Program-made: the position numbers and the translations under genes
Shown: piece by piece, positions 1 to 42,440 of the stretch
Layout: the number at the start of each line of letters is the position of its first letter
Position numbering within the stretch: position 1 is the stretch's first letter
The notes under the pieces: generated by a model
Told to the model about the DNA's origin: nothing
Database searches by the model: none
Seen by the model: only the letters and a program-made list of their open reading frames with translations
Source: Yuukianura sp. NJ FZ-2021
Lineage: Eukaryota
NCBI GenBank assembly: GCA_046563655.1
Contig: CM102288.1
Span: 558,001 to 622,000 of the forward strand
Direction: 5' to 3'
Length of the DNA stretch: 64,000 bases

Positions 1-1255
1 CGGCGTATTTTGAGTAACCAAAAGTCGATACAGTTTGTGTGAAATCCTAAAAACCCAAAAATTGAAGTTTTAAAAAAAATTTGGCTTTCTTTTATTTGTT
101 TTAAAAAGTTACTTTACCGTGATTACAAGGCAGTATTTTCAAAAGTTCAGCATCCCCGTACTCTTCCATACAAATTACACAAGTTTCAAATTTTTCAACC
201 AAATCGTCCTTCCATTCAACAATTGCTAAAGAAGATACTGCCCGTGTTAGCAGCGTTTTGCGCCTGTCACGTCGATGTCGCTCCACCCATTGTTGAAATC
301 CACATTCATAAATCTGCAAAATCAAAATTTTGAAATAAAATTTTTGACTTTTTAGTATTTGCAAACATTGTCTTACAGGCTTTGCAATACATAACACGAA
401 AAGTAAGAAAAAGAAGGCTAGAACGGTCCACAGGAAGTAGAAAACGACATCTTTGTAAGTTGGTGGATTAGTGTTGATTCTAGCAAAATATCTACACAAA
501 ACAAATAATTTTGAAAAAAAAAATATTTTTGAAAAAATTGTTTTATTTTATGAAAATCACCTTTTGCTGTCGTTTTGAGTAAAAATGTGTTTCAACTCGC
601 GTCCATCGTAATCTCCAACGAAGAATGAAGGAACGACGATTTTGATTGGTCGTCCGGCTTGTTCTTCCGTGAGGCCAATGACCTCTGTGTCATTTGACCC
701 CACGTTAAAAATCACTAGTGCTGAGTAGCCAGCAGCATCAGCATGCTCAATTTTAGTTTTGTAAGGACAGTCCAACTTGGAAGCCAATAAAATCCAGGGT
801 CTTTGACCTTTGACCTCTCCACTACTGACAAGGTCAAGGTCAAACATTTTGCGAAAATTCGCTGGAAATCCGGGCGGTGGGTCAACGTCTTTGCAAGCGT
901 TGATTGGATTTGACAACTGGACGAGTCCCTGCAAAAATTAATTTGATTAAACTTTAGAGGTCAGAGGTCAACGTTTAACTTTGAAACTCTTTTAACCCTA
1001 CTTTAGCCTATTTTCAATCTAATGTTTTACCTCAATTTCGGTAGGAATTTGTGTAGTAAATTCAACTACTGATGGTTGGTCAATTATGGAGGTCACAAGA
1101 GTGTCATTGTCCAGTGAGTCAAAAATTGAAATTGTTCCTTGTGGTGGGATCATGTAAAAATAGGCGTCTAAAAATCCTGTGACACTTGGGTCAAAGGTCA
1201 CCGCGGTCACAAAAGCAAAAAACAAGGATTTGACCTCTGCTGCTGATGATGACAT
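1..1255 (-). CDS. PA-domain transmembrane RING-H2 E3 ligase (RNF13/RNF167/godzilla-like); 3' end runs off the window
   Basis: Signal-like N-terminus; PA-like segment (NPINAC...CPYKTKIEHADAAGYSALVIFN); TM helix; RING CVICMEEY...LKILPCNH continuing in the next exon as FHTNCIDFWL. Confidence 0.85.
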
Positions 1256-5926: not shown

Positions 5927-8900
5927 TTAGCTCTGAATACAGCTGAGACGGGTTGTTTTGCGTTCTGGACGGCAGATTTGCTTATTCTCGAGAATGCTGT
6001 TAGTGTTACGAATGTCGCTGGTTTTCTCTTGAATGTCGCTGGCTTCGTTACGAATGTCGCTGGTTTTGATTTGAATGTTGTTAGTTTTGTTGCGAATGTC
6101 GCTGGCTTTGTTTCTTGGTGTTGCCATTGGTCGTGGAGGTGGTGGGACTTTAAATTGAAATCCAACCAAAATGTTTCTTATGGTTTCCGCTCGTTGTCGA
6201 TTGATTGAACCTTGAAGATCATCCAGTGTTGTGATCTCATCAGTGGACACAATGATTGTAAAAGATTCAGCATCTTTCTTAGAAGATCTTCCAGAAGGAA
6301 TCACTGAAGTGTTAAACTGGCCAGAAAGTACTGCTGACAGATCAAACGTCGAAGTTCCTGCATTGGGAAGTATTTCATTTCCGGTTGAGTTTCGTTCCAA
6401 AAACGTTGGTTCCAGAAATGAATTTGGCAGATTGCATAGGAACTGTGGAAAGTTGCAATCGAAGAGTGGATGGTCCGAAGCTGTTAGTTCAGTTCGGTAC
6501 TTGCTAATTGTTGTTGTTGGTTCTGCTTCGCAAGTAATGGACGGAGGTGGAGCTATTTCTGGCTTGTTTGAAGAAGCAGTTGATGCTGGAGCGTTCGTTC
6601 GAAGTTTTGGCAGCACTGTAGCAACTACAGGTTTCGTTGTGGACTGTACTTGTGCAACTGCAGCCACAAATTGTTGTGGTACACCCAATTCAAATGTGCT
6701 AATTTCCGTCTCGTCTGTAGTAAACTTCAAACTGGAAAGCGGAAGTTCAAGTGTGTCCATCTCAGAGCCGAAGCGTAACAACTTCCAAGACCTTGAAAAT
6801 ACAGAATCAAATATCAGAATTAAAATACATACAAAGTATTCAAAGTTTTTCCAAAATTTTCGGTTGAAGTAAGGTTTAGACTGAGAGATTGTATCCCTAG
6901 TAGCATTGGCGCCGTACCCCGCCAAGTTCGAAAACACTAGAACTTAATTTTTTTTTAGAATTAGAATTTGAGACTTGTATTTTACCCGTGCTGAAGTGGG
7001 ATTTGAATATAACGATTCTGTCCTTGCAAAACAACGTCAACCTCAAGGTGTCTCCGGATTCTTTTCAAGTGAATTGGCTCCACAGCGACAGACTGCTCAA
7101 CAGGAACGACGGAACTGACAGTGCTAGATGGCTGACATTCGGCCATCAATGCTGGATGCAGACATTCTCTGTAAAGATTAAAGCACATTAAGACTTAACT
7201 AATTAACTAACCTAACTAATTTACATATACTTTGTAAAAAATCCTGTTTGATTAATAGAATTACAAACTTACGGATTGTTAATCTTGATATTGAAAAGCT
7301 CATTTTCGTCAACCTTGTCCAGAGTCAGTCTCATGCTTTTGGCAATTTCTAAAATATGGTCGGGTATACTCGATTTTCGGTGATTATTGGAGTCAACAGT
7401 ATAAGTATACGGTTCGTCAACTGCCTCAGTCAACAATTCTTCAACTGTCTTCTCTTCATTAAAGTGTCGCAGTTTTGGTGGTCGCCCAGGCCCGCGACGT
7501 CTACTCTTCCCAGCCACTTCCGAGTTGTAGTCGTAAATACTTGGAACTTCCAACTTCCTGATGAGAGAATTGTAAACTTCTGGGTCGAATTTTTTTGAAT
7601 AACGACGTTGCCTAGCCGTATTGCAACCTACTTTCTGTTTCTCCAGTACGGGCATCTCGTTTTTCTCTAAGCTTGGATTGTAATTTGGAAGTACTTGAAT
7701 TAATTGCTCCACCATCGTCATTTCTGTTTCACTTTCATGATTGCCTTGGATATTGTCATCGCTGTAAATTAAATCAATCTCAACGGGCTTCTTCGTTTCC
7801 CGAAGTCTGAAACTTCTTCGGCGTTTGTCGGCATTCCGACATTGCGGCAGTCCTTGTACTGTGGTATCGGTATCGGTGTCGGTATCACGCAATATCGGTA
7901 TTTCCAGTTTAGAGGCTAATGGTCTATTCTGCCATCGGGGTCTGAGACGACGTCGCTCGTTATCCCGCCCTTGGGATCTCGTGGTTCGTCTCAAACCATT
8001 GAGGAATCTGGCTCTGGAGTTACGAACTTGCCCAATCGTCTTCGGTGTCGTTTTTGAAACGACAGGAGTCAGAGTTTCGCTGATTGATTTAGTCGCAGTA
8101 ACTGGTGTATCTAACATTGGAGGCAGTGGAGATACCGTGATCGATGAAGTTTCTTTGCTTCTACCCGTATGATAGTCGGTGAGTTTCGTCTGTTTTAGTT
8201 TCGAAGTTGTGTTAGGTACTGATTTGACGCAGGTACGTTCTGACATTCCAAGTTCTGACGGCCTTGGCATGAAAATTACTCTAACTCGCTGGTGATCTGT
8301 TTTCTTAGGAGTTTCAGCACTTCTGGAGATGCTACGGGTATGGGAGCCAGTGTTTGTCGCAACTTCAAGCGAAATCTTATCATCTTCAAAACGTTTCCTC
8401 TTGGAAGCAAGTCGCTTGAGATTGATTTTCAGTTCACGTGGACAAATCTGAGTAATAATTTGAGGTGACATTTTCTTTGGTACAGGAGATAGTGCCTGCG
8501 ATGTTATTTCTGGAACTGGTTCTGCAGTTGCAGTAACAGGAATGGCGGAATTCGATTTCTTAGCAGTTGAGGGTGGTGTGAGGAGTGCCCCGAATCTAGA
8601 AACAAAAATAAACAGTTGTAAATGCTGCAAGGACGTAGTAATATGGACGTTTGGGCTTCTACATTTCCTTGTATTTCTACATTTGTGTTTCTATTTATGA
8701 AAATGTTAGCCGTAGGTCAAAGGTCAATACACTCATACAAACGTTGTTTGTCTCAATGTGATGAACAACTTTACAGGTCACTGGCAGCAAAAGAAACTTG
8801 ACTTTGACCTTTGACCCGGAAGGTATTTACCTCCGTATGACAGGAAGCACTGGTAGATCCACTGATTTCTTGTCCATTTCTTGTTTTCGTTTCGCCATCG

Positions 8901-13174: not shown

Positions 13175-13732
13175 TTTGAAAGGTCAAAGGTCAACTTCAA
13201 ATCTCTTGGACATATTCTCCCACCACCATAATTGTTTAAAAAAAAATACTTTCAAAAAATAACACACATCTCGCCCTAGCACCACATAGGAAGTTTGAAT
13301 TTAAAATTTTGGAAAAATTTTAACATTTAAACGAGGTCATTGACACAAAAAGGTCAAGTGACCTTGCAATGCTTTTATGCAGAATTCATGGTATTTTTTT
13401 TAGAGTTTGAGTTTTTTTATTTAAAGAAATGTTAAGTCTTGCACAACTATATCTATCTAGTTCAGAGTTTTTTTTTAAAAGTTGGATTTGTTGTGCTTGT
13501 GTTTGTTTTGGACAAGGGCTGAAATGTTTTTATCAGTCAATGTCAAAGGTCAAATTGATTAACAGCCATTCGGGTGAGGGTGTGTTGCTTTGTAACAGCT
13601 TATATCAACACTATTAGTTAACTTTTAGAATCGAAACGCTAAAAATTTCTAAATTTCTAAAAACAAAAGTTAAAAGCGGACAAGCAAGGTTTCCGTTTTG
13701 AAGTTTTAGACTGTTATTTAACTCAATGAAAA

Positions 13733-15693
13733 ATGATTAAACTTGTATTTTTTATATTAACATTCCTGTTATGGACTTGTGGAATGAGGAGGTCAGAGGT
13801 CAACGGCCTTGGATACGTCCGTCAAGGCTCAAATCCTACGAAATTGGATTTTGAAAAGGTCAATGACCTCGATCAGGTCGATGACCTTGAAGAGGTCAAA
13901 TACTCGGCCACATGGGAGAGCTTAGACAAGCGTCCACTTCCGGCATGGTACGATACTGCCAAAGTAGGAATTTTCATTCACTGGGGCGTATTCAGCGTTC
14001 CAGCGTTCGAAGGAGCTTGGTTCTGGGAGAACTGGATTAATCGAGGTTAGTTAAATAAAGTATTAAATAATATAAATCAATAATTAATTCAATTTTATTA
14101 ATTTAGGAAACAAATTAATTACGGACTTCATGAAAGATAATTACCCGCCTCGCTTTACGTATATGGATTTCGGACCACAATTTACCGCTGAATTTTTTAA
14201 TCCAAACGACTGGGCTGACCTGTTTGCGAAATCTGGTGCAAAGTAAGCCATCGACATCAAGTAATTAAGTAATTACTCAAGTAATTACAAAGTAATTAGT
14301 AACTAATTTGTAATTCGAGGTACGTTGTGTTGACGAGTAAGCATCATGAGGGATTTACGTTATGGCCGTCCAAGTACTCCTTCGGATGGAACTCAATGGA
14401 CATTGGTCCCAGGAGGGATCTAGTTGGTGAATTAATACAAATGTTAATTACTAATTACTAAAGTAATTAACCCTACTTACTAATTTTCAGGTGAGTTGGG
14501 AAATGCTATACGGAACAAAACGAATTTGAAATTTGGACTTTACCATTCTTTGTACGAATGGTTTAATCCTCAATACATAAATGATCAGAAAAACAATTAC
14601 ACCACGGATGTATTCGTAACTTCAAAAACAATGCCGGAATTGTATGAACTGGTAATTTGATCTTTGACCTCACGACTAGAATGAAACAGAATTTTCAAAA
14701 AAATATATTTCTTCAAAATTTCAGGTCAACAACTACCAACCAGAAGTGATTTGGTCCGATGGCGACTGGGATGCATCGGATGACTACTGGAAGTCTCGTG
14801 ACTTTTTGGCCTGGCTGTACAACTCCAGTCCAGTGAAGGACACTGTGGTGACGAATGACCGATGGGGGGCTGGGTGCATGTGCAAACACGGTGGATACTA
14901 CACATGCTCAGACAGATACAATCCAGGTACGAGTCACTCTAACCTCCAACTTCCACATAAAAGTCAACTTTTGACCTTTGACCTCGTTCAAGGTCATCTT
15001 GTGCCCCACAAGTGGGAAAACTGTATGACTTTGGACAAGCACTTCTGGGCCAATCGCAGAAACGCAAACATCCAAGACTATCTCACGCCCTGGGAACTCA
15101 TCAAAACACTCATCCAAACTGTCTCATGCGGAGGTCAAAATTGTTTAAAATGAAATAGAAATTTTCTAAACTAAATTTTAATTGAAGTTAATTGTGAATT
15201 AAGGTAACATTTTAATTAACGTTGGGCCGACTAAGGAAGGAATGATCGTGCCCATCCAGCAGGAGCGACTGCTGCAACTCGGGAAATGGCTGGAGGTCAA
15301 TGGAGACGCAATTTACGGAAGCACTCCTTGGACACATCAGAATGACACGCTCAACCCCAATGTGTGGTAAGGTCAATGACCTCCAAAAACTTAAAAGTTT
15401 GAATTTCAAAAGTTTTTTTTTCAAATTCACAAATTTTCAAATTTCTTTCGTCTGATGACTTAAGGTACACTTCTCGACCAGCCGAAAAAGCCGTGTTTGC
15501 GATGACCTTGACCTGGTCCCCTTTTGTCTTTCTGGGGGCAATTGATGGAGGTCGCGTGTGGTCAATTGAGTTGCTGGGTACTTCAGAAGACCTCAAATGG
15601 ATACAACTTGATGAAGGAATCTCTGTCCAAATGCCTAAGTGGGAATCAGTCGTTTCGAGATACGTCTGGACTCTGCGCATTACAACAATTTGA
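13733..15693 (+). CDS. FUCA: Alpha-L-fucosidase (GH29), copy 1
   Basis: Signal peptide; [27 protein letters not shown], nucleophile motif IWSDG, NDRWG, KWENC, VSCGG. Confidence 0.92.
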
Positions 15694-16101
15694 AAAAGAT
15701 TCAAGTTTTTTAAATTTTTAGAATCGTTTTTGACATTCAAATAAAATTAAGTTTGGAAATTAATAAAGTTAACACAAGCTATTCCAGTTCTCTTTGATGA
15801 TGAATTGTCTCTCAATATTTTAAAGTTATGCTTTTTGTTACGTTTTGAAGAAAACACATAAACTTATTTATTGCCCTGTTTTTGTTTATGCTAAAAGTTG
15901 ATACTGTTAGGTCAAAGGTCAACGTGATTGAATTGAGCCTGTTTTCTTATTATTGAACGCTGAAATTGTTATCCACTTTACATTAGTCCAGCTAACAAGA
16001 GGGTCAAACACGAGTTCAGCTTTTAATAGTTTTCATAGATTGTAGTTTTAGAAATTTAAAATTTTGAATTCAAAAATTCCAGTTTTTTAAAATTGGAGAA
16101 A

Positions 16102-18202
16102 ATGGGCGGAGTTTCTTCGTTTTTGACGGTTTGGACTCTTACGAGTTTCGTGTCTCTCGAGGTTAATAGCCTCATCAATATTGGTCAGAGGTCAAACGAA
16201 TTGAAACTAACGCTAGAAGAAAGTGACCCCAAAGATGACCTTGAGGTCAAGGTCAAGTATGTCCCCACATGGGAGAGTTTAGAAAGTCGCCCACTTCCTG
16301 CTTGGTACGATGAAGGGAAAGTAGGCATTTTTATTACTTGGGGAGTATACAGTGTTCCGGCGTATGAAGGGGCGTGGTTTTGGGACTACTGGATTAACAG
16401 AAGTAAATCATTACAATTAATTTTAATTAAATTAATTTATAAAATATTTAATTGTGGTGAAATATTTAGAAAATATTAACATCACGGAATTCATGAAAAA
16501 TAATTACCCGCCGCGATTTACGTACATGGATTTTGGACCACAATTTACAGCAGAGTTTTTTAATCCAAACGACTGGGCTGACCTGTTTGCTCAATCAGGT
16601 GCAAAGTAAGTTCAATTATTTACCAAGTAATTACACCATAATTACTCAAAGTAATTCGAATTACTTTGAGTAATTAATTACGTGGGATCACAGGTAATTT
16701 ACCAAAAACTAACTACTCAAAGCAAAGTAGCAAAATAATTTCCATCAAATTGTTATAATTACTTACGATAATTATTGTAATTACCAAAAGTAATTCGTAA
16801 TTATTTCAGATATATTGTTTTCACGAGTAAATTCCATGAAGGATTTAACTTGTGGCCGTCTAAGTCCTCTTTTGGTTGGAATTCAGTGGATGTAGGACCC
16901 AAGAGAGACATTGTTGGTAATTAACTTGTAATTATTTTAAATTCATAATTAAAATAATATAATTCTAAATTAATTACAACGTTGTTCATAATTCTAGGTG
17001 AATTGGGTACTGCATTAAGGAACAAAACTGATCTGAAATTCGGTCTTTATTACTCTCTGTTCGAATGGTTTAATCCGAATTATTTGAGTGATCAAAAAAA
17101 TAAATACTCCACTGACCTGTACATAACTTCCAAAATGATGCCTGATTTATATGAACTAGTAAGCTGACCTTTGACCCCTTGACCCCGGCAGGTCACTGAA
17201 CTAAAATTATTGCACTTCTTAGATCAACAATTACCAACCGGAGGTCATCTGGGCCGATGGCGACTGGGATGCATCAGATGACTACTGGAAGTCTCGTGAC
17301 TTTTTGGCCTGGCTGTACAACTCCAGTCCAGTCAAGGACACAGTGGTGACGAATGACCGATGGGGGGCTGGGTGCATGTGCAAACACGGTGGATACTACA
17401 CATGCTCAGACAGATACAATCCAGGTACGAGTCACTCTAAGCTCCAACTTCCACATAAAAGTCAACTTTTGACCTTTGACCTCGTTCAAGGTCACCTTGT
17501 GCCCCACAAGTGGGAAAACTGCATGACTTTGGACAAGAACTTCTGGGCCAATCGCAGAAACGCAAACATCCAAGACTATCTCACGCCCTGGGAACTCATC
17601 AAAACGCTCATTCAAACTGTCTCATGCGGAGGTCAAAAATGTTTAAAATGAATTAAAAATGTTCAAAATGTCTAAATTAAATTTTAATTGAAGTTAATTG
17701 TGAATTAAGGTAACATTTTAATTAACGTTGGACCAACAAAGGAAGGGATGATCGTGCCCATCCAGCAGGAGCGACTTCTGCAACTCGGGAAATGGCTGGA
17801 GGTCAATGGAGACGCAATTTACGGAAGCACTCCTTGGACACATCAGAATGACACGCTCAACCCCAATGTGTGGTAAGGTCAATGACCTCCAAAAACTAAA
17901 ACGTTTCAATTTCAAAAAGTTTTTTTTTTTCAAATTCACAAATTTTCAAATTTCCTTCGTCTGATCACTTCAGGTACACTTCTCGACCAGCAGAAAAAGC
18001 CGTGTTTGCAATGACCTTGACCTGGTCTCCACTTGTTCGCCTGGGGGCAATTGATGGAAATCGCGTGGAATCAATTGAGTTGCTTGGAACTACTGGACAT
18101 CTCAAATGGACACAACTTCATCAAGGCATCTCTGTCCAAATGCCAAAGTGGGAATCAGTCGTTTCGAGATACGCGTGGACCATGCGAATTACAACAAAGT
18201 GA
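16102..18202 (+). CDS. FUCA: Alpha-L-fucosidase-like (GH29), copy 2, with altered substrate-binding residues
   Basis: Same exon layout as copy 1; IFITWG, TSKFHEG, IWADG, KWENC. Confidence 0.9.
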
Positions 18203-21009: not shown

Positions 21010-23257
21010 ATGTCTGGTGTGAACGCGGCTTTACTGGGAGTTGAATGTGGTGCAACGAGGTCAACAGCCATTTTGAAATTTTTGAATGACCCCGCACGTC
21101 CAGAACAAATTTTTAACTTTGGACCTTCAAATTTGAGACTTCTTAAAAACGAAGGGCAACTTGAACCGTATTTTAAAAATGTTCGGGAGAAAATTGAACA
21201 GGAAGTGCATGGCGTTCGGATTTTGAGAATCGGAATTGGAATGTCCGGGGTCAGAGAGGATTGTGACCGACAGGTAAAAAATTGAAAACCAAAACTTTAT
21301 TTTTTGAAAATAATTTAAAAATTTTGGATTTCAGGCTGTTCGGGAAGTCGTGGAACGAGTTTTCCCGGATCTGGAAAAAGTTTGGGTGGGAAGCGACCAA
21401 GAAACGGCAATTGCATGTTTAACAGATGACGACGAAGTGCCGAAATTTATTGTGATTTGTGGTACCGGTTCTGGATTGTTCGGAACTAACGGTTCAACGA
21501 CTTTCAAAATTGGAGGCTACGGACATATAGTGGGCAAGAAAAAAATTTCAGAAAAAAATTTTGTCATGATTTTGACAAAAAATTATGATTTTCAACAAAA
21601 ATTTACCCTAAGCCTGGTTCACACAACTCACGCTGTTTCCCAAAAGTGGAAAAAAAAATTTTGCTCACATTTTTTTAAAAGTATTCTTTTCATGTAGGTG
21701 ACCGCGGTGCTGGTTACACTGTTGCACAGAACGGTCTGAAAGCCGCATGCGCAGAATATGATTTAAACAACGAGAAATCTTCTCTTCTGGACTCGTTTAT
21801 GAAGGCAATGGACTGTGAATCCATTGAAGATGTCTGCACGAAGTCGCTAAGTCCAGAATATACAAAATCCAAACTAGCTGCCCTTGCAACGCTAGTTCTT
21901 AGTGCATGGGAGTCGAATGACCCAGCGGCTACAAAAGTAGTCAACAATGCTCTGGATGAACTCGCAGCAGATGCTGCCTGTTTAGCCGTGAAGCTCGCAC
22001 GGTCAAAACCTGGAACTAAGCAAGTCAGTGCCGGACTTACCGGAAGCCTACTCACCAAAAATGAAAAATTCCGTACCGAATTTGTGAATCGCGTGAAACG
22101 GCACGTGAGAAAGTTCGTACCGGGCTTAACTCTAAACGTCACTGTACTTCACCACACGTTTCACGGTGGATTGATGATGGTTTCAGACAAAGAAAACCGC
22201 GACGTGAAAACTTCCACTGAAAAGTCAGCTGATCGTCCAATCACAGAAGAGGAGTTGGAACAGCTGATTCTGCCCATTCGAACGGCCTTGTCTCCCACTG
22301 AAACTCGGAATCCAAAATCCAAAAACTTAGATAAAATGTCAATTTCAGAAGCAATGGACTTGTGGTTAGAAGAGGAGAAGTCAATTTACGAAAAAATTGC
22401 GCAACAAAAACCAATTTTGGAAAAAATCATTGCTCGTGTTGCGGAAACTTTTCGAAATGGTGGGAGGTTATTTTATGCAGGAGCAGGAACGAGTGGAAGA
22501 TTAGGAATTCTGGATGCTTCTGAGTGTCCGCCTACTTTCCAATCGCCTCCAGAATGGGTCCAAGGTTAGTTTCAAAATTTCAACAAAAAACTCAAAAAAA
22601 AAATTTTTTTTCCCAAAATTTTAGGAATAATTGCGGGAGGAGAAGAAGCAATTGTCAATTCGAAAGAGTCAGCAGAAGATTCAGTTTTTGGCGGATCAGA
22701 AGCCGTGGAGTCGCGTGGACTCAATTCAAAAGACATTCTAATTGGTTCGAACTTTTCAAAATGTCTAAGAAATGAACTTTTCAAAAACTTTAAAAAAAAA
22801 TTTTTTTTTAGGAATTGCTTCTTCCGGCACAACTCCGTTTGTCTGGGGAGCAATGTATAGAGCCAAGCAGCTAGGAGCTTTTACGTGTTTCTTGACCTTT
22901 AACCCGCACCTTGACCTCAAATTTCAACCAGATGAAACGATTGTGGTTAATGTTGGACCAGAAATACTGACTGGAAGTACGAGACTCAAATGCGGAAGTG
23001 GAACTAAAACCATTTTGAACATGATTACAACTTTGGCGATGGTTCAGTTTGGAAAGTGTTTGGAGAATTTGATGGTTGACCTTGACCCGGCATGTCAAAA
23101 ACTTAGAGAACGAGCTCTCAGAATAGTTTTGACGATTGTCAATAATGCAAGTGATGGTGACGGAACTGCACGACACATTCCGGAAGATGTTGCTCAAGAA
23201 ATTCTTGTGAGGAACAACTACGACATTAAGAAAACAGTCCAGGAATTGAAAAACTAA
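21010..23257 (+). CDS. murQ: Fusion of a BadF/NAGK-family sugar kinase with an N-acetylmuramic acid 6-phosphate etherase (MurQ); 5 exons (21010-21273, 21335-21533, 21698-22564, 22625-22744, 22812-23257)
   Basis: Kinase motifs GVECGATRS, ICGTGS, GGYGHIVGDRGAGY; MurQ motifs TETRNP, GAGTSGRLGILDASECPPTF, ESAED, GIASSGTTPFV, GPEILTGSTRLK, NLMVD; spliced frame is continuous. Confidence 0.9.
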
Positions 23258-25783: not shown

Positions 25784-26306
25784 AAACAAACACTGAATCA
25801 CACGATTAAGAAACTAAATCCATTAACACGCCCTTGGAGGTGACTACGTCTTAATTTTAAAAAGTTTTTAAAAAATCATGTGATGCATCACCTCCAGAAT
25901 CCAGAAATTTCAAGTATAAATACTGGCTTAGGGCAACTCGGAAACCATTGCACTCTTGCTCCACTCTTTTACCAAAAACGCTTAAAACTTCCAAATTTTT
26001 TCGAAATTTCAAAAATTTCTACTCGTCAAATTTTGCATTTTGAGCAACCTGTTTGCTCATTTGTGAATTTGTAACACTTTTTTTGGAAGTGGAACCATTT
26101 AATGGGTAGAAACCATTTCCTAATTTCGACAGCCGAATTTAAATTTGTCCTCTTCTATACCAAGTACACGATTCCTCCAGTCACAAACACCATTAGGTGT
26201 AATTTATCCAAACTCAGAAAAAAATAAATTTTCAAAAGAAAAAGCTTTTTTCAAAAAACTAATTTTTTCTAAAAGGAAGTACTTTTTAAAAAAAAACTTG
26301 AGAAAC

Positions 26307-28861
26307 ATGCCTTCAACTTGTTGTGAAACTAAGGCCGTACCTGTCTCCACTCCTTTGATTGAAACTGCTCCTGTTCCATCCAAGGTCAAGGTCACGGCGA
26401 CACTTCATCCACTGGACTCTTTGACCTTGACTGAAATTGCTGCTTCAGTTCGCATCATTCGCGCGAACTATCCCACGAAAAAATGGATTTTCAATGCTGT
26501 TTCGCTCGAAGAACCTGAAAAAACTGCAGTTCTGGAGTACATTAAGGCTGAAGAGAGAGGGGAGACCATGACACTTCCGGTCATACCACGTCGGTCCAGA
26601 GTCATACTCATTGAGCATTACACTGGCAAGGTCACGGAGGTCACGATCAACTTGACCTCGGAGGTCATTGACTCCTACGAAGACATTCCCTTTGGTAACC
26701 AACCCACTTTTACCATGGAAGAGACAGTTATTGCTGAAGACATTGTGAGAAAGGACGTAGGAGTTCAAAATCGGTTGGCCAAGATGGGAATTCAAGATTT
26801 TGACAACGTCGTGTCTGATCCATGGTAAAAAATTTAGATTTCACTTTTCAAAATTTCAAAATTTCAACAAAAAAAAATCAAAATTTTGTTTTTTCTAGGG
26901 TTGTGAGTTACGAAGGAATGGATCCGAAGTTAAGAGGGCGTCGTCTCATGCAGTCCTTCATGTACATACGGTTGTACGAACATGACAATCACTACGCACA
27001 TCCATTAGATTTTGCACCAAGTAAATTTTAAAATTTTGAAATTTGAAAAATGGATTTTTGAAATTGACGCTTTCTGACAGTCGTGGACATGGCTACGGAG
27101 AAAGTTGTGGCGATTGAGGATGTTCCTGTTCATCTGGACATGAAGACCCCCGGGAGGTCAAAGGTCACGTACCCCAAGAAATGCAGTAACTTTGTCCATG
27201 AGTTACATCCAGAAGGATTCCTAAGAAACGACATCAAGCCTCTTCAGGTTGTGCAACCGCAAGGACCAAGTTTTAGCCTCAAGGGGAACGAAGTCAGTTG
27301 GCAAAAATTCAAAATCCGAATCGGGTAACAACGCAAACATAACAAAAAAACTAATCTGGGTCAATTCTTAACTGACATTTGACCTTGACATTCAGATTCA
27401 ACTACCGCGAAGGACTCGTGTTGCACAACGTGTCGTACCAAGATGGCGACCGACGCCGTCCTTTGATATACCGCGCCTCACTGTCCGAAATGATCGTGCC
27501 GTACGGCGACCCCCGACCTGTGTACCATCGCAAATGTGTTAGTTTCAGACTTAACTAATTCGTTAATTAAGATTGTTAATTAGTTAATTATAATTTAGGC
27601 TTTTGATGTGGGTGAATATGGACTTGGATACTGCACAAACTCTCTGCAACTTGGTTGTGACTGCTTGGGTACAATCAAGTACTTGGATGCGCACGTCGTC
27701 AATCACAAGGGCGAACCAACCACAATCAAAAATGCAATTTGCATTCATGAAGAAGACGATGGAATTCTGTACAAGCACTACGAGTACAGAAACAATCATG
27801 TCACTTTGGCACGATCGCGCAAACTCATCATCTCTTTTATCGTCACGGTCGCCAACTACGAATATGCTTTCTACTGGACTTTTCGACAAGATGCTTCCAT
27901 CCACTTTGAGGTCAAAGTAAGTTGTGACCTTTGACCTTTTCAAAAATTTCAATTATTTTCAAAAACTTTACCCTAGGCTACTGGAATCATCAGCACGATT
28001 CTTCGACTGGACGGTGAAAAGGCGTCTTTTGCTTCTCCTGTCATGGACAACGTGAGTGGCCAGTTTCACCAACATGTCTACTGCATGCGACTGGACACAA
28101 TGTTCGATGGTGTCAAAAACACAGTCTACACTGTAGACACGACTCCACTCAAAGGCAACGTAGGCTCAGAGGACAATCCGTGGGGACAAGGATTCGGTTC
28201 GGCCATGACGCCGCTCAAACACGGTTTTTCGGACAATTCGACGGAAAAGTCTCGGTTCTGGGTCATTGGGAACGACGACAACCGACATCCGACAACTGGT
28301 GGACCGACATCGTGGAAACTGTACCCGGGAAATCCGGTTCGGCTCATGGCCAAACCAGGAAGTCACATCTACGAACAAGCTGGATTTGCAAGACATGCTG
28401 TTTGGGTAACACCTTACGACGCAGAGCAAGTGTATCCAGGTACACTTTTACAAAAACTTTTCAAAATTTACCAAAAAAGAAACTGCTTTCAAAATTGTGT
28501 TTTGAATTTGTTAGCTGGGAAGTACATCAATACGATCAATGGTTTCAACGGTTTGGCTGAATGGGCACAAGAGGAGAAAAATACTGAAAATGAGGACATT
28601 GTGCTATGGCATGTCTTTGGAACTACGCATGTCGTTCGAACAGAAGATTTTCCAATTATGCCAGTGGAGTAAGATTTTTTCAAACAAAAATCATGGAGTT
28701 TTGAAAAGTTTTTTAAAGTTTTCTTTTCCATTTTAAGATCTTGTGGGTTCGCTCTGAAGCCTTTCAACTTCTTCCTTTGCAATCCGGCTCTGGATGTTCC
28801 ACCTCCGGATCGAAACGAAAACAAAAGCGCTCAAGTTCTTTCCATTGGAAATGGAAAATGA
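26307..28861 (+). CDS. Copper-containing amine oxidase (TPQ-dependent), multi-exon, no signal peptide
   Basis: HPLDSLT, AFDVGEYGLG (catalytic Asp), VANYEY (TPQ motif), HQH and HVVRTEDFPIMP copper ligands, FFLCNPALDVP. Confidence 0.93.
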
Positions 28862-32525: not shown

Positions 32526-35295
32526 TTAGTATCGAGCAGAAGATAAGCAAGATGGTGGTGTATAGCAAGAAGGAGGCGACGGCAGCATAAGCGGTGGTTT
32601 GCTGATGCCGTAGAATCCTGGTGGCGGCAGAGATACTGGCGTAGGTGGCGCTGAATTTGAAAGAAGCGCTGAAATTCGTCCAATTCCTTTCACAGCTCCA
32701 TACCCAACGAGAACCAAAAGTCCAGTTCCAAAGAGAAGGAATTCCAACCCACAGTCGCTTACGCTTCTCTGTCCAGATAAAACCTAAAAAACAATTTTGA
32801 AAAAAATATTTAAAAAAAAACTTCTTAAAAATAAGCTCCAAAATTTGAAAATTTTAGTTTTAGAACAAACCTCTCTTAAAGTTCCAAACTGCTCGGCAAA
32901 AAATGTTGCGTCTTGTGCAGAAGCCTCAGAAACTGTCAAAATTTCTGGAGAATTTCCAGGTTGTTGCTGCGAATCGCTGTTGTCCGCCGTATTTCCAGCA
33001 GCATCAGGTGAATTCAAAGTTTCTGCACCACCGTCAGCGCCTTGAGTGGCTGCAAGGCCGGCTTGATCTGCACCTTCAGGTGAAGTTCCTTCGGCTGCAC
33101 CTTCCAACGTAGTTGCTTCGGCTCCACCGTCTGACGAACTTGGTTCGACGGAATCTTGTGCTGCACCTTCCGTCGGTACAGTTTCGGTTTGTTCTCCACC
33201 TTCGGTCTCCCCAGCAGCAACTGTCTCATTGCCACTCGAACTTTCAATTTCCGACGTTTCTGACGATTCGGCACCCTCCGCCCCTTCACGAGTCTTTTCA
33301 AGCATTCCTTCATCCCCTTCTGCACATTTAGCTTCGCCAGAGTCTTCTCCTGTTGTATCTGCACATTCTCCTGTGGCCTCTCCTGTTGCTGCGACTTCTG
33401 TGGTAGCCTCTCCTGTTGCTGCGACTTCTGTAGTGACTTCTCCTGTTGCTTCGACTTCTCCAGTGGCTTCTCCTGTTGCTGCGACTTCTCCAGTGGCTTC
33501 TCCTGTTGCTGCCACTTCTCCAGTGGCTTCTCCTGTTGCTGCGACTTCTGCTGTAACTTCTCCTGTTTCTGCCACTTCTCCGCAACCTCCTTGACCTTCC
33601 GTTTCTGCTGTAACGGCAGCGTCAACACAGGGTTCCGTTCCTTCAGCAGTCTTTTCAAGCAATCCTTCCTCACCTTCTGCGCAATTAGCTTCTCCTGTTG
33701 TATCTACACATTCTCCAGTAACCTCTCCTGTTTCTGCGACTTCTGCAGTAACCTCTCCTGTTGCTGCGACTTCTGTAGTGACTTCTCCTGTCGCTTCACC
33801 TTCTGCAGTGACCTCTCCGCAACCTCCTTGACCTTCCGTTTCTGCTGCAACGGCTGCTTCAACACAGGGCTCCGCAGCTTCAGCGACTTTGTCAAGTTGT
33901 TCTTCCTGGCCGCCCGGCTTGTCGTCGCAGAGAGGCCAAACAACTTCCGGATTTTGGCCGTCCTTTGGCTGATCCCGGCGCATTAGTTCTAAAGTAAACA
34001 ATTTAGTATTCAAATTTAACATTGTGACCTAGCATGACCTAAACTTCAAAAAATCAACCTCCAACACAAGTTCCAGTTGGCATTTGATCCAGTGCTGCTT
34101 CATCTGGTGGAGGAGGAAACTCCAAGTCTGCTGCTACAACTTGAGGAGATCCAGTGACAGTGTCGCTTCCGGGAGTCACAGTGGCAAGAGCATGATTTTC
34201 TTGGGTTGGTTGAAGTGGGATTCCACTCATGGGCTGAGGCTGACATCGTTTGACCTCATCTTCTTGACCTTTGACCTTTGCCTGTTGACCTTCCTTGACC
34301 TCTTGTTCTTGTGTCAAAGTGTCTTGGTCAGTCTTGGCACCTTGACAACCAGAAAGTTGGTCTCTTCTTACTCCAAGACGTTCCAGTGCAGCAGCGATCG
34401 CTTGAGCATGTTCCAGTGCAGCACTCATGTTTCGCACTTGCGTAAGGAGTGCTTGAACTTCTTGACAAATCAGTCTGTCCAGACTCTTGGTCGAAAGATT
34501 CAGAAGGTCAGCGTTCGGCTCACTTGATCCCTGCACTCCCTCACCTACATTTTTAAATTTTTCAAAAAATGCAAAAATTTTAAGCTTCTGGAAACTTTTT
34601 GTCATCTTTGAATGTGTTTTTATAAAGTTAGAGTGACCTGTACACTTGACCTCTCCTTGACCTTCTGCCACCATTTCCATGTTTGATAGTAAGTTGGTGA
34701 GAACATTAATTTGTTGATCCAGACGATTCTCATCTGTATCCTGCTGACATCCTTCCGGTAGCAGTTGAAGTTCACCCGCTCGGCGATACTTTTCTGCAAA
34801 TTTAGTCCCAACTTCAACAGAACTCTTTACGAGTTCTTGAAGTCCCGAGAGACGCCTGCGCAGCGATTCGGGGTCATTCGGGTCATCGCTTTTCCCAGTC
34901 CCATCTCCAACTCCTTTGGCCTTCTGTCAAGTACACAAATGGTTGAAGTCAGGTTTAACGACCATCATTATAGCCGCATAGTGTTGCCACTCCGCCATTT
35001 TAAGTGGCTACACCGTGTGGCAACATGTGTTGCCACCCATTGTAACTAATTAATGGATTACCGGTGCCGAAGATCCAGCTCCTCGTCCGAGCTTTTGATC
35101 CAAGTAGTCAGCAACGAAACAGTAAATGTTTTGGGGTTTACGATTCAGCACCTAAAAGTATCATTAAACAAATTTTTGCTGTTTTTTGAAAAAGAAACTG
35201 TGTTTTTTAAACTTTGCCTGTGTGGAAATGTCTTGAAGGAGCTTTTCAAGGCCGGGGGGTAGCGGTGGCACAAAGTCATCGCAAGGATTTCCCAT
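32526..35295 (-). CDS. RIIa docking-domain protein with a long acidic repeat region and a C-terminal hydrophobic anchor
   Basis: Spliced N-terminus LPPGLEKLLQDISTQ|VLNRKPQNIYCFVADYLDQKL; EVAATGEATG repeats; FLLFGTGLLVLVGYGAV near the C-terminus. Confidence 0.65.
33360..33870. repeat. Coding 30-nt tandem repeat nested in a larger duplicated block
   Basis: TCTCCTGTTGCTGCGACTTCTCCAGTGGCT-like units; EPCV..AETEGQGGCGEV occurs twice. Confidence 0.85.
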
Positions 35296-36044: not shown

Positions 36045-37177
36045 ATGGACACAATTCTAGAACTGCATGACAAGTACCTGTTGACACCTTATGTTTATCC
36101 AAGTGACTGGGCAGAGGGGTCATGGACACGACAGTACATTTCTCTTTTTTTCATCATCACGATCAATGGATACGTACTGTACTTTTTAACGGCTGGACTC
36201 AACTACTGCTTAATCTTCGACAAACGACTGCTCCACCATCCACTCATTCTAGAAGTAACAAAATATGTTAATATTTAAATATATTAATGTATTTTAATAT
36301 ACTGTTGACTTTACAGAATCAAATTTCAAAGGAAATTGGAGTTGCCTGTAGATCTGTTCCTGTCATGGCCATCCCTACAGCACTGTGCTTCCTACTGGAA
36401 GTTCAAGGTTATTCTAAACTCTACCATTCGGTCGACCAAGCATATTGGGGTAATTTTTCCAAAAAAGTTCAAAATTTTCAAAAAAAAAAAAACAAATCAG
36501 AATTCACATATAAAAAATCAAGCATTTGAAAAAGTCTTTGGGTTCTACCGAAAACAAAAACCTTCGGTCCACAGTGCAAACTTTTTTGTGACTTTTGAAC
36601 GTAAAGCAGACGAAATTGTAAGTTGACCTTTGACCTTTTGATTTTGAAATGCTTTTTTCTACTTGTAGGTTGGATTTCCGTCATTCTGAGTGTCGTGACC
36701 TTCATCCTATTCACAGACTGTCTAATATACTGGATCCACCGTGGTCTCCACTCCCGTCTTCTGTACAAACGTCTTCACAAGACACATCATCTGTGGAAAG
36801 TGGCCACGCCCTTTGCATCTCACGCATTTCATCCCGTCGACGGATTTCTGCAGAGCCTGCCCTACCATCTCTATGTCTTCCTCTTCCCAATGCACAAGTA
36901 CGCATCTCTCCTCATGTTCGTACTCGTGAATATCTGGACAGTGTCGATCCATGACGGGGACTTCCGAGTGCCCAGGGCCCTTAGACCCTTCGTCAATGGC
37001 TCTGCTCATCACACTGACCATCACATGTACTACAACTTCAACTACGGACAGTTCTTTACGCTCTGGGATAAAATTGGACGGAGCTACAGAGAACCGGCGG
37101 CCTTCTGTGGGGATTCCCCAATGGACCAAATACTGCGCAAAGCAGTGCTAGATCAGAACAAAAATAAAAGTTCTTGA
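36045..37177 (+). CDS. SC5D: Sterol C5-desaturase / lathosterol oxidase (SC5D/ERG3-like), copy 1
   Basis: His boxes [42 protein letters not shown]; 3 exons. Confidence 0.9.
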
Positions 37178-37513: not shown

Positions 37514-39017
37514 ATGGACACCGTTCTGGAATTGTATGACGAGTACTTGATGACCCCTTATGTGTACCCCAAGGGGTGGTCAGAGGGGTCATGGTCACGA
37601 CAGTTGTTGACATTGTCATTGGTCCTCACTCTCTACGGATACGCTCTCTACTTCGTCTTGAGTGGACTCAGCTACTGGCTGTCATTTGACAAGCGACTGC
37701 TCCAACATCCATTATTTCTGGAGGTAAAATAATATTTAACAGGCAGGTTGCGTTATAAATCATTTAGAGAAATTATACAATTTACGATGAGGAGTGACAT
37801 CACTTTTTCCAACTTTTTGAATTTTCAAAGTTTAACACGACCTCTAAAGTTCCGTAAACGAGAAAAGTTTGGAAAGTGACGTAACATATTTGGAATCGAC
37901 CAATCGCGGGAGCCGTAACAAAACGGGTGGAAAGAGGCGGCACTTGCTAAATTCTATACTTTTATAAATTCTGATTTGAAAGTTTGAAACCCAAACTCCC
38001 TAATATATTTATAATTTTAGTTAATTTTAGTGTTCATTTTATATTTCGTTTCATTTAAGAATCAAGTTGGAAAGGAAATCAGAGCCGCCTGTGAGTCAAT
38101 TCCTTTGATGTCCATATTAAGCGCTGCGTTCTTCCTCCTCGAAATCCGCGGTTTTTCCAAACTCCACCATTCCAGCGACGGCGGTGCATGGGGTAAATTA
38201 AATTAGTTTTATATTTAAATAAAATAATAAATAAATTCAGAAATCAAAAGCAAATTCAAACCTAATTTACATGGAACAAAACTCTCAAGTTTTTCGTAAG
38301 TACTATAAATACGTTTCTTGGGGAAGAAAAACAACATAGTAAACGAAAAAGTGTGCAAAATTTCGTTTCTCAGAAACTCCGTGCTTTTTTCACACCTAAA
38401 ATTTTCCCCACGAGGAACCAATTTCCCAGGATCTGGAAATTAAAAATGATATCAAACATCAAAATTCGTTTTAAATTAGTTTCCAGTTTCCTAAAATTTT
38501 GACTATTATTTTCTTAGGCTGGATTTCCACTTTGTTCGAGATCATGACGTTCATAGTTTTGACGGACTTGGCATTTTACTGGACTCATCGTGCCCTTCAC
38601 TCTAGTTTGCTCTACAAACGTTTCCATAAACTGCATCATAAATGGAAAGTGACCACTCCCTTTGCAGCTCTTGCAATCCATCCCCTAGATGGATTTGTCC
38701 AGGGACTACCCTACCATATCTACGTCTTCATCTTCCCCATGAACAAAAACGTTTTCCTTTCCCTCTTTATGTTGATGAATATCTGGGCAGTATCGATACA
38801 TGACGGTAACTTCAAAGTACCCAGAGCCCTTAGACCCTTCATCAGTGGGACGGCACATCACAGTGACCATCACATGTACTACCACTACAACTACGGTCAG
38901 TACTTTACCTTCTGGGATAGAATTTTCGGAAGTTTTCGGGAACCTTCGGCATACACCGGACAGTCTCCATCCCACAAAGGCGCTGGGAATGACCTTCTGC
39001 TGGACAAGAAACAATAA
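37514..39017 (+). CDS. Sterol C5-desaturase-like, copy 2
   Basis: Paralogous 3-exon structure; HRALH, HKLHH, HHSDHH. Confidence 0.85.
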
Positions 39018-39985: not shown

Positions 39986-41060
39986 ATGGACATCGTTCTA
40001 GCACTGCATGACGAGTACTTGATGACCCCTTATGTGTACCCCAAGGGGTGGTCAGAGGGGTCATGGTCACGACAGTTCTTGACATTGTCACTCCTCCTCA
40101 CTATCTACACGTACGCTGTGTATTTCACTTTTGGCGGACTTATTTACTGGTTGTCCTTTGACCAGCGTCTGCTGCAGCATCCCTTGGCTATGCAGGTAAA
40201 TAAAACAAATTCATTTATAATTTTAATAATAAAAGTAATGTTTTATATTTTATTTAAGAATCAAGTTGCAAAGGAAATCAGAGTCGCTTTTAAGTCAATT
40301 CCTGTGACTGCGACTTTCAGCGCTGCGTTCTTCCTCCTCGAAATCCGCGGTTTTTCAAAACTCCATGATTCCAGCGACGGCGTTTGGGGTAAATAAGTTA
40401 CTCTTCTATTTAAATATATTAAATAATTTAAATATAATAGATAATTTAAATAAGATAATTTAAATATAATAGAATAATAGTGGGTTAACAAGGCTCTAGT
40501 CTACGTCTGCGGCGCACAACTCGCTCCTGAGTGCCGAATTTTAACTTCCGGTGTTTCTTACAGGCTGGGTTTCCATATTGTTGAGCACCATTACGTTCAT
40601 TGTCTTCACTGACTTTTCACTTTACTGGATTCATCGTGCCGTTCACTCTCGTTTGCTCTACAAAAGGGTACATAAAAGGCATCATCAATTTAAAGTGCCC
40701 ACTCCCTTTGCATCTCTAGCTGCCCATCCTCTGGATGGAATTCTCCTTGGACTACCCTATCACATCTACGTATTCCTTTTCCCCATGCACAAAAACGTTT
40801 TCTTTGCCCAGTTTCTACTCATTTCTGTGTGGGCAATATATCTACATGACAATAACTTCAAACTGCCCAGAGTCCTTAGACCATTCATCAACGGTACGGT
40901 ACATCACACTGACCATCATTTGTTTACCAACTTCAACTACGGTAACTACTTCAACGTCTGGGATAGAATTTTCGGAAGTTATCGGGAACCGTCGGCATAC
41001 ACCAGAGAGTCTCCCCTACACAAAGTCCCTGGCAATGACTTTCTGGATAAGAAACAATAA
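39986..41060 (+). CDS. Sterol C5-desaturase-like, copy 3
   Basis: HRAVH, HKRHH, HHTDHH; exon 1 and 3' flank similar to copy 2. Confidence 0.85.
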
Positions 41061-41173: not shown

Positions 41174-42440
41174 CTAAGGAGTGGGAAAATACTGGACGAC
41201 TTGATGTTGTAGAGTGTTCGGAGTTTCAGTTGGTTCGGTTGCGGGAGAAGAGTCGACGGTAATCGTAATGATCGTGTCGTTCCCAACTGTACTCATTTCA
41301 AAGCTGTATTCATGATCATCCATGTCAGTGTAAGTCGTAGAGGGTTCCGGTTCGACTGGAATTGACGGTAAAGGTGGCGGAGAGACATGTTTCTTGCAAA
41401 TTGGGCAAGCTGCCTTGGTCTTCAGAATCCAATTGTCGACGCATTTGACATGGAAAACTAATCAAAATCAAAATTATGATTTTGAATGCCTGTGGACATT
41501 TTGAAATTCTTTTTGATACCATGGTCACAGTTTAGCTTCCGAACCAAATCGCCTTGCTCAAAGTCTTCCAGGCAGATGACACATGAAACGTTATTTGGAA
41601 AATGGTGATGATGAGGCGACCAAAGTTCAATTTTGGTCAGCGCCAAGGCCTTTTGAGCTTGTTTTCGGCGGAATTCGGCAATTGTCGGGGGCGTTCCAGC
41701 GGAGGAAACTCGAGACCATCCAAACACTTCATAAAACTGTTTTAAACGAAACAAAAAACTTTCAAAAAAGTTCAATAGTTCAAAACGAATGTTTAAAAAA
41801 AATTACCCAATTGGTAGCCACAAGACAGAAGATTATGAAAGCCAACAGAATACAGAGCAGGATACTGAAGAACAGAATATTTCGGTACAAGTATTCGTCG
41901 TCATCTCCAAAGCTGATGTTAGACTCTCGCAATTTCTGCAAATGCTGTCGGATACTGGAAACATGAAACAATTTTTCAATTAACATTAATCTAAATATCA
42001 ATTTTCAATTTCTTACCTTATGGGTGCCAAAATGTAACTTTTCTCTTCCGAACTGGCCCCACCAACCATCACAGCCTCAATGACTCTGACCGAAGTGACC
42101 TCAACGTCACCTTCACTCTGATTGGCAAGATCCTCCATTCCGATCAGGTCACGCGATTTCAATTGTCAAACTCAAGTGAGCTAATTGAACGAAGTAAGAT
42201 GTTACTTTCCCCGAAATACTTCTAGTTTTGAAAAGTACTTGGCCACGGTGATTGCAAAATGTTTCGCAGCTAACTTCAACTTCTTTAGGTGACTTTTGTA
42301 ACTTTGAATTTTTGGAAATCGTAAAATTTAAAATTTTATGGACATAAACAATAAGGTCACACGAGAAGTTAACAACAGACAACAAGGTGACAGACAAGTT
42401 GTTCCAGAAATAAGCAGCGACTGTAGTAAATGAGTAGTAG
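41174..42440 (-). CDS. Transmembrane RING-H2 E3 ligase; start uncertain
   Basis: TM segment ILFFSILLCILLAFIIFCLV; CVICLEDFEQGDLVRKLNCDH|VFHVKCVDNWILKTKAACPICK. Confidence 0.75.

Follow-up and report, generated by a model that had tools for sequence, protein, structure and literature searches.

A bacterial-type sugar kinase-MurQ fusion gene in a springtail genome and its putative role in the use of a bacterial cell-wall sugar

How does a gene that joins a bacterial-type sugar kinase to a MurQ etherase come to lie in the genome of a springtail, and what might it do there? The question is raised by a locus at positions 21010 to 23257 of a stretch of 64,000 nucleotides (nt) from Yuukianura sp. 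NJ FZ-2021 (GenBank assembly GCA_046563655.1, contig CM102288.1, positions 558,001 to 622,000 of the forward strand), hereafter called the window. An earlier note, made from the sequence alone, had read this locus as a horizontally acquired two-step enzyme for N-acetylmuramic acid (MurNAc). The kinase-MurQ gene was very probably acquired by horizontal transfer from bacteria. It is integrated in the host genome and, based on its motifs and relatives, probably encodes a cytosolic protein in which a BadF-type kinase is followed by a MurQ etherase on one chain, with a putative function in the use of MurNAc.

Homology-guided joining of stop-to-stop frames gives a gene of five exons (Table 1) with a coding sequence of 1896 nt, equal to 631 codons and the stop codon TAA, and without internal stops. 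The ATG at 21010 is the earliest methionine codon downstream of an in-frame stop. The position and the single spliced frame described in the earlier note were recovered in this way as an intact open reading frame (ORF) of 631 amino acids, colinear with fused homologues, and its four introns were found as well, three of them GT-AG and one, intron 2, with a GC donor that it had missed. This GC-AG choice is the only splice that restores the kinase motif GGYGHIVGDRGAGY, which then runs without gaps against 'GGWGH..GD.GSGY' of the homologues, and the GC donor was preferred because the nearby GT donor shifts the frame of exon 3. The alternative GT donor, at 21530, was rejected as exon 3 is then left without a long ORF. 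The fusion itself is independent of how the exons are joined, because exon 3 alone spans from the kinase into MurQ; that both domains lie on one frame is thus a confirmed observation. The introns are AT-rich (16-27% GC compared to 44% in the coding sequence), and the window contains one copy of the gene.

For the domain assignment, each exon was scored separately against family models. Residues 1-138 of exon 3 match the BadF/BadG/BcrA/BcrD kinase family (Pfam BcrAD_BadFG, E = 4.1e-5) and its last 90 residues match MurQ (NCBIfam PRK05441, E = 4.2e-30). Positions 6-96, 98-137 and 138-268 of the MurQ model are covered in order by exons 3, 4 and 5, and the three exons reach 104.8, 31.6 and 139.5 bits against this model (NF003915), a sum of 275.9 over model positions 6-268 of 300 where the cut-off is 168. 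For the kinase part, exon 3 covers no more than model positions 140-250 of PF01869, and its 23.7 bits therefore do not reach the gathering score (31.5). The same family is present in full-length homologues, with which the window protein aligns from residue 9. Kinase motifs of the ASKHA type are kept, namely GVECGATRS (GxECGAT), GTGS, GGYGHIVGDRGAGY with its GDRG, and LTGS, all of which align with homologues. On the etherase side DASECPPTF, ESAED (E-x-A-E-D), IASSGTTPFVWG and TGSTRLK are kept. The two acidic motifs pointed out in the earlier note were both located (Table 1). The first is unchanged, and the second retains both glutamates, with the glycine of EGAED replaced by serine. The glutamate of DASECPPTF and that of E-G-A-E-D are what we take to be the MurQ catalytic pair.

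Both parent superfamilies of such a protein occur in animals, and the Pfam name of the SIS matches is 'GKRP_SIS'. This would fit a vertically inherited eukaryotic fusion of an animal NAGK with a GKRP-type SIS protein, an origin that the match scores already contradict and that is hardly credible. A profile of the arthropod proteins described below reaches 303 bits against MurQ but only 105-119 against GKRP, and 91.5 against the MurNAc/GlcNAc kinase structure 8zo3 (GlcNAc, N-acetylglucosamine) compared to 68.7 for Sulfolobus hexokinase and 48.2 for human NAGK. Likewise, of the solved structures, that of Haemophilus influenzae MurQ (4lzj, E = 1.5e-26) is a far better match to exon 5 than that of GKRP (E = 8.7e-7), and the kinase part of exon 3 matches 8zo3 (E = 5.6e-5). 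GKRP (GCKR) shares with the window protein a homologous SIS fold derived from MurQ; it differs in its tandem SIS domains with a lid and in the absence of a kinase, whereas the window protein has a single SIS/MurQ unit behind the kinase domain. The window protein moreover nests inside the fused proteins of Verrucomicrobiota.

Contamination or a chimeric assembly would be another explanation for a gene whose nearest non-arthropod relatives are bacterial. However, identity to any bacterial protein is just about 40%, and four AT-rich introns break an otherwise colinear alignment. The GC content at third codon positions is 38%, with 34-58% in the neighbouring genes and thus within their range, and Pfam matches of long frames in the window place eukaryotic genes on both flanks. 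Upstream are a PA-RING protein, two tandem alpha-L-fucosidases and, immediately before the gene, a GT64 glycosyltransferase; downstream are a copper amine oxidase, three fatty-acid hydroxylase genes, eIF3d and an ionotropic glutamate receptor. The eIF3d exon is 96% identical to a metagenome protein, 88-90% to Folsomia candida and Orchesella cincta, and 79-86% to the remaining named arthropods in the list (insects, crustaceans, tick, scorpion, centipede), with rows ranked by identity and three top-scoring fish-labelled rows (49-71% identity, one of them marked UNVERIFIED_CONTAM) set aside. These identities point to a springtail, or a near relative of springtails, as the host. In public DNA runs, short contigs contain exon-intron junctions of the kinase-MurQ gene, none of them covering the gene together with both flanks. 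Exon 5 and the downstream flank are also linked by a 1758-nt DNA contig from a second study, which shows about 5% differences and represents a related but diverged copy. The argument against contamination that had been drawn from introns and animal neighbours is therefore strengthened by host-like GC and by these contigs, and an artefact of this kind is exceedingly improbable.

The relatives of the gene point to where it came from. Exon 3, used as a query for longer proteins, matched 2996 of the 8000 candidates scored. The best 120 of these are all about 560-690 amino acids long with both domains, and the named ones among them are Verrucomicrobia, except for Bradysia odoriphaga and Oppia nitens. 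The match of the spliced protein to that of O. nitens extends from end to end (residues 9-630, 42.8% identity), and the match to the Bradysia entry, which is truncated at its N-terminus, spans residues 93-630 (46.5%). Matches to proteins of Verrucomicrobiota in the first 40 rows run from residues 1-11 to 589-631 (37.5-42.7%). In a profile search, of which the best 120 rows were listed, an arthropod-type set scored 583-1071 bits and the top bacterial protein 557. This set comprises Oppia, Bradysia, Pseudolycoriella hygida, O. cincta, two Logan-derived proteins and one JGI protein. An exhaustive profile search of 1.84 billion representatives returned 17276 proteins at E<=0.001, including extra arthropod-type fragments, some of which share 60% identity with Bradysia, 82% with Orchesella or 59% with Oppia; a close relative of the window protein was not found among these fragments. 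A metagenome scan with one of the relatives, P0124, gave bacterial-type loci only among the matches listed, at 37-57% identity. As P0124 itself has an uninterrupted ORF of 471 amino acids across the positions of window introns 3 and 4, these two introns are probably not common to it and the window gene.

The fused proteins of Verrucomicrobiota, such as those of Pedosphaera parvula (P0060) and of a Limisphaerales metagenome-assembled genome (L059), match the window protein in domain order, in a length of about 600 amino acids, in all kinase and etherase motifs and in a colinear identity of 37-43%. They differ from the window gene with its four introns, host-like composition, eukaryotic flanks and arthropod-clade signatures (GG[YHF]GH instead of GGWGH, GKC[FL]ENLMVD instead of GKVxxNL), residues that agree with the trees. 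A Verrucomicrobiota label applies to 69 of the 80 loci kept. The exhaustive profile search also recovered fusions in the reverse order, in which MurQ occupies the N-terminus and is joined to another domain (P0381, P0393, P0397-P0399 and others, about 610-680 amino acids); in these, profile positions 365-638 match residues from about 4 to 275.

In every tree the eight arthropod-type rows group together as a single clade, whether built by quick IQ-TREE, by FastTree or after Dayhoff-6 recoding. In the quick IQ-TREE tree of 38 rows, this clade has an SH-like approximate likelihood ratio (SH-aLRT) support of 98, and its sister is P0154 (97), there alone in the set and on a long branch. With 75 rows in FastTree the clade has a support of 100, and its sister is the group P0154/P0345/P0334 (96). 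The same two groupings receive 100 and 97 with 24 rows in quick IQ-TREE under a site-heterogeneous model. As the arthropod rows deviate in amino-acid composition, the 24 rows were also recoded, and both groupings remained unchanged, with 99/100 for the clade and 96.3/99 for the sister. In the 75- and 24-row trees the clade and its sister nest in a larger bacterial group that includes Pedosphaera parvula. Among species-representative prokaryote genomes, the best match of P0154 is the Limisphaerales locus L059 (64% identity over residues 1-604).

Nesting in a bacterial clade, introns inferred from homology, host flanks and host-like composition are together what would be expected of a transferred gene. 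The earlier proposal of a horizontal acquisition is thus upheld by trees as well as by structure and profile scores, in which both domains side with bacterial fused proteins and not with GKRP or NAGK. Its picture of a fused kinase and MurQ also stands as far as the two domains are concerned, but the fusion is no animal invention: it is well supported by the sequence comparisons that the gene entered arthropods already fused, because the same layout is common in Verrucomicrobiota, and long ago, because introns and host composition have already been gained. Nor is its presence 'in an animal', although confirmed by the integration in the springtail genome, unique to this species, as mites, sciarid flies and another springtail share the clade. 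The window gene is therefore a new and divergent addition to an arthropod gene family that descends from bacteria and of which part has been catalogued before.

Part of this catalogue dates from 2016, when the O. cincta protein Ocin01_02468, which we assume to be tree row P0123, appeared in supplementary tables of transferred genes with an etherase of Pedosphaera parvula as its best hit (PMC4987106). In the available portion of the main text of that paper the term etherase does not occur and Ocin01_02468 is not discussed. Like the window protein, the Orchesella homologue comes from a springtail, has the fused layout and belongs to the same arthropod clade; it is not clearly the sister of the window protein, and the nearest-row path between the two is about 1.4-2.1 substitutions per site. 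No paper devoted to the kinase-MurQ fusion, whether in arthropods or in Verrucomicrobiota, was found in a literature search that left some supplements outside its reach. A second acquisition of a bacterial MurNAc-6-phosphate etherase gene by arthropods is known from Camponotini ants, in which murQ from Spiroplasma-like Mollicutes has been fixed and is expressed, according to a 2026 paper (PMC13320244). This case differs in its donor, is an independent event and is described, in the text available, as a stand-alone murQ with no mention of a kinase. According to that text its authors present the transfer of murQ as previously unreported, a statement of priority that overlooks the springtail, mite and sciarid family.

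How the gene became distributed among arthropods is less certain. Rooted with bacteria, the arthropod clade splits into Oppia with two further rows on one side and the window protein, Orchesella, one further row and the sciarids on the other. Support for the two sides is 98 and 89 in the 24-row IQ-TREE tree and 70/91 and 84/70 after recoding, where 89 and 84/70 belong to the side of the window. This split agrees coarsely with the species tree and, together with the monophyly and long stem of the clade, would be consistent with a single ancient transfer to an early arthropod before mites and hexapods separated, followed by vertical descent and by loss in most lineages. However, the named members among the seven arthropod-type proteins are one oribatid mite, one springtail and two sciarid flies, and no other insects, crustaceans or chelicerates are among the best 120 rows listed, so this scenario needs very many losses. 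An etherase is likewise not mentioned in the available supplements to the paper on the Folsomia candida genome. Furthermore, the sciarids fall among the springtail-type rows and not outside them, with a weak support of 88.8/65 in the recoded tree, and purely vertical descent therefore appears rather unlikely.

Alternatively, one bacterial transfer into a soil arthropod could have been followed by spread from arthropod to arthropod, reaching oribatid mites, springtails and sciarid flies. This would suit a clade that is monophyletic but patchy in distribution, as well as the nesting of the sciarid rows with Orchesella and one further row. The taxon set is also the same as that of the canonical terpene synthases, which a 2024 paper (PMC11665903) describes, in the sections available, from exactly Sciaridae, Collembola and Acariformes, with transfer between arthropods proposed. 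The two cases share this unusual set of soil arthropods but concern unrelated enzyme families, and the parallel should be taken as a lead only. As the branching order inside the group of window protein, Orchesella and sciarids, like the internal arthropod branches in general, is weakly supported, such a spread can be put forward tentatively, as a scenario that falls short of being likely. The common taxon set does make gene exchange among soil arthropods testable by synteny, intron positions and denser trees.

What the protein would do follows from established chemistry. A route with separate proteins is known, with MurK of Clostridium acetobutylicum or Tannerella forsythia and MurQ of Escherichia coli or H. 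influenzae (4lzj, 1nri). The same two steps are expected for the window protein, which unlike these has both predicted activities on one polypeptide, and they are inferred because of the established MurK and MurQ chemistry, as described in the available text of PMC10465942 and in the assay description of a 2026 preprint on GKRP. The kinase half would phosphorylate free MurNAc at O6, after which the MurQ half would strip the D-lactyl ether and yield GlcNAc-6-phosphate and D-lactate. GlcNAc-6-phosphate could then feed amino-sugar catabolism or the synthesis of uridine diphosphate GlcNAc and chitin. The protein is predicted to be cytosolic, because its N-terminus opens directly with the phosphate-1 motif like that of the bacterial proteins. 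In a detritus and microbe feeder such as the springtail, MurNAc would be freed from eaten microbes by gut lysozymes, amidases and hexosaminidases. On this basis we lean slightly towards MurNAc salvage as the function. Clearance of immunogenic muramyl fragments might be a further, more speculative role. At the Limisphaerales locus L059, an N-acetylmuramoyl-L-alanine amidase, an epimerase and an aminotransferase precede the fused gene on the same strand, with the amidase three genes upstream, a neighbourhood that lends weak support to a role in cell-wall recycling.

Several observations weigh against a functional MurNAc enzyme as described here. Against TIGR00274, the stricter equivalog model of MurQ, exons 3, 4 and 5 reach 89.7, 24.5 and 118 bits, a sum of 232.2 where the cut-off is 302. 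Whole arthropod relatives, with 313-321 bits against NF003915, also stay just below this cut-off at 286-291, and the Pedosphaera protein lies above it at 319.8. The window protein is the most divergent full-length member, with an end branch of 0.71-0.88, and has changes at near-invariant positions (ESAED for EGAED, GDRGAGY for GDRGSGY, GSGTK for GTATK). Such divergence and substitutions could reflect relaxed constraint or an altered substrate. The evidence for a preference of the kinase for MurNAc over GlcNAc consists of the fusion and the nearest solved structure. In MurK of Tannerella, MurNAc specificity has been assigned to S133-P134-L135 and T94, small residues that leave room for the lactyl ether, and a role of the conserved kinase aspartate is described for MurK as well (PMC10465942, text available in part); Tannerella MurK was not among the sequence matches of the arthropod-clade profile against solved structures. 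The amidase neighbourhood was examined at one bacterial locus, the splice model including the rare GC-AG intron 2 is drawn from homology, and salvage presupposes that free MurNAc reaches the cytosol, presumably through a transporter.

Perhaps, then, the gene is a relic, decaying or shifted in function, that is unexpressed, acts on another phosphosugar or has become a regulator binding sugar phosphates in the manner of GKRP. The longest branch among the arthropods, the changes at near-invariant positions and the precedent of GKRP, in which regulatory roles evolved from an etherase, would fit such a fate. However, the frame of 631 codons is intact over five exons with well-formed splice sites, the kinase motifs are retained along with the two acidic motifs of the etherase, and a related, diverged copy of exon 5 and its flank is present in the DNA contigs of the second study, which makes a relic improbable. 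GKRP itself is a less simple precedent than the earlier note had assumed when it called animal GCKR non-catalytic. This holds for the rat protein, but a 2026 preprint reports lancelet GKRP and ancestral GKRPs as active etherases and cites activity for frog GKRP.

If the window protein is an active enzyme, a pathway dedicated to MurNAc would exist in springtails and in some of the mites and fungus gnats. MurNAc is characteristic of bacterial cell walls and is the only sugar of peptidoglycan for which animals otherwise have no pathway. Soil bacteria would then have been the source of a new function in nutrition and possibly in immune clearance. The fuller account, in which a functional two-step MurNAc salvage enzyme came from one Limisphaerales-like donor and then spread between soil microarthropods along the route of the terpene synthases, is possible but on balance doubtful. 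If true, it would imply that soil arthropods repeatedly exchange genes within a network, and that an animal pathway leads from a bacterial wall sugar to GlcNAc-6-phosphate for energy or chitin. The novelty is tempered by the listing of a homologue as a transferred gene in 2016 and by the etherase activity already reported for some animal GKRPs.

Table 1 Coordinates of the kinase-MurQ gene, its parts and other features of the window.
Feature	Position	Strand	Remarks
Exon 1	21010..21273	+	88 codons; start codon, kinase N-terminus, phosphate-1 motif 'GVECGATRS'; fused homologues align from residue 9
Intron 1	21274..21334	+	61 nt, GT-AG, phase 0, 16% GC
Exon 2	21335..21533	+	199 nt; kinase phosphate-2 motif 'GTGS', 'GGYGHIV'
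Intron 2	21534..21697	+	164 nt, GC-AG (GCAAGA...TAG), phase 1, 27% GC; inferred from homology only
Exon 3	21698..22564	+	867 nt; kinase C-terminal half (catalytic-Asp motif GDRGAGY, 'LTGS'), linker, N-terminal part of MurQ with DASECPPTF
Acidic motif DASECPPTF	22513..22539	+	in exon 3
Intron 3	22565..22624	+	60 nt, GT-AG, phase 1, 18% GC
Exon 4	22625..22744	+	120 nt; MurQ segment carrying ESAED
Acidic motif ESAED	22666..22680	+	in exon 4
Intron 4	22745..22811	+	67 nt, GT-AG, phase 1, 19% GC
Exon 5	22812..23257	+	446 nt including TAA, last base 23257; C-terminal part of MurQ: 'IASSGTTPFVWG', 'TGSTRLK', 'GKCLENLMVD'
Possible polyadenylation signal AATAAA	23329..23334	+	72 nt past the stop; motif only
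PA-domain/RING-finger type gene piece	104..937	-	
PA-domain/RING-finger type gene piece	41461..41802	-	
Alpha-L-fucosidase (GH29) gene	13730..15150	+	first of the tandem pair
Alpha-L-fucosidase (GH29) gene	16060..18199	+	second of the pair; C-terminal fucosidase domain
Region of raised contig depth	24873..25806		many internal joints
Copper amine oxidase gene	26124..28669	+	adjoins the transferred gene
Fatty-acid hydroxylase-domain gene	36605..37174	+	first of three in tandem
Fatty-acid hydroxylase-domain gene	38475..39014	+	second of three in tandem
Fatty-acid hydroxylase-domain gene	40545..41057	+	third of three in tandem
Long frames, 338-542 amino acids	4093-5391, 5930-6943, 7272-8690, 32787-34028, 42777-43949 (-), 52807-54432 (+)		no Pfam match at E<=0.001

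Just downstream of the kinase-MurQ gene, the summed contig depth rises about 100-fold above its surroundings in all three DNA runs, as would probably be caused by a mobile element or a repeat present in many copies. The copper amine oxidase gene lies next to the transferred gene; amine metabolism is mentioned among transferred genes in the available part of the Orchesella paper (PMC4987106). The two fucosidase genes consist of matching exon pieces, and the two PA-domain/RING-finger pieces have about 40 kb between them.

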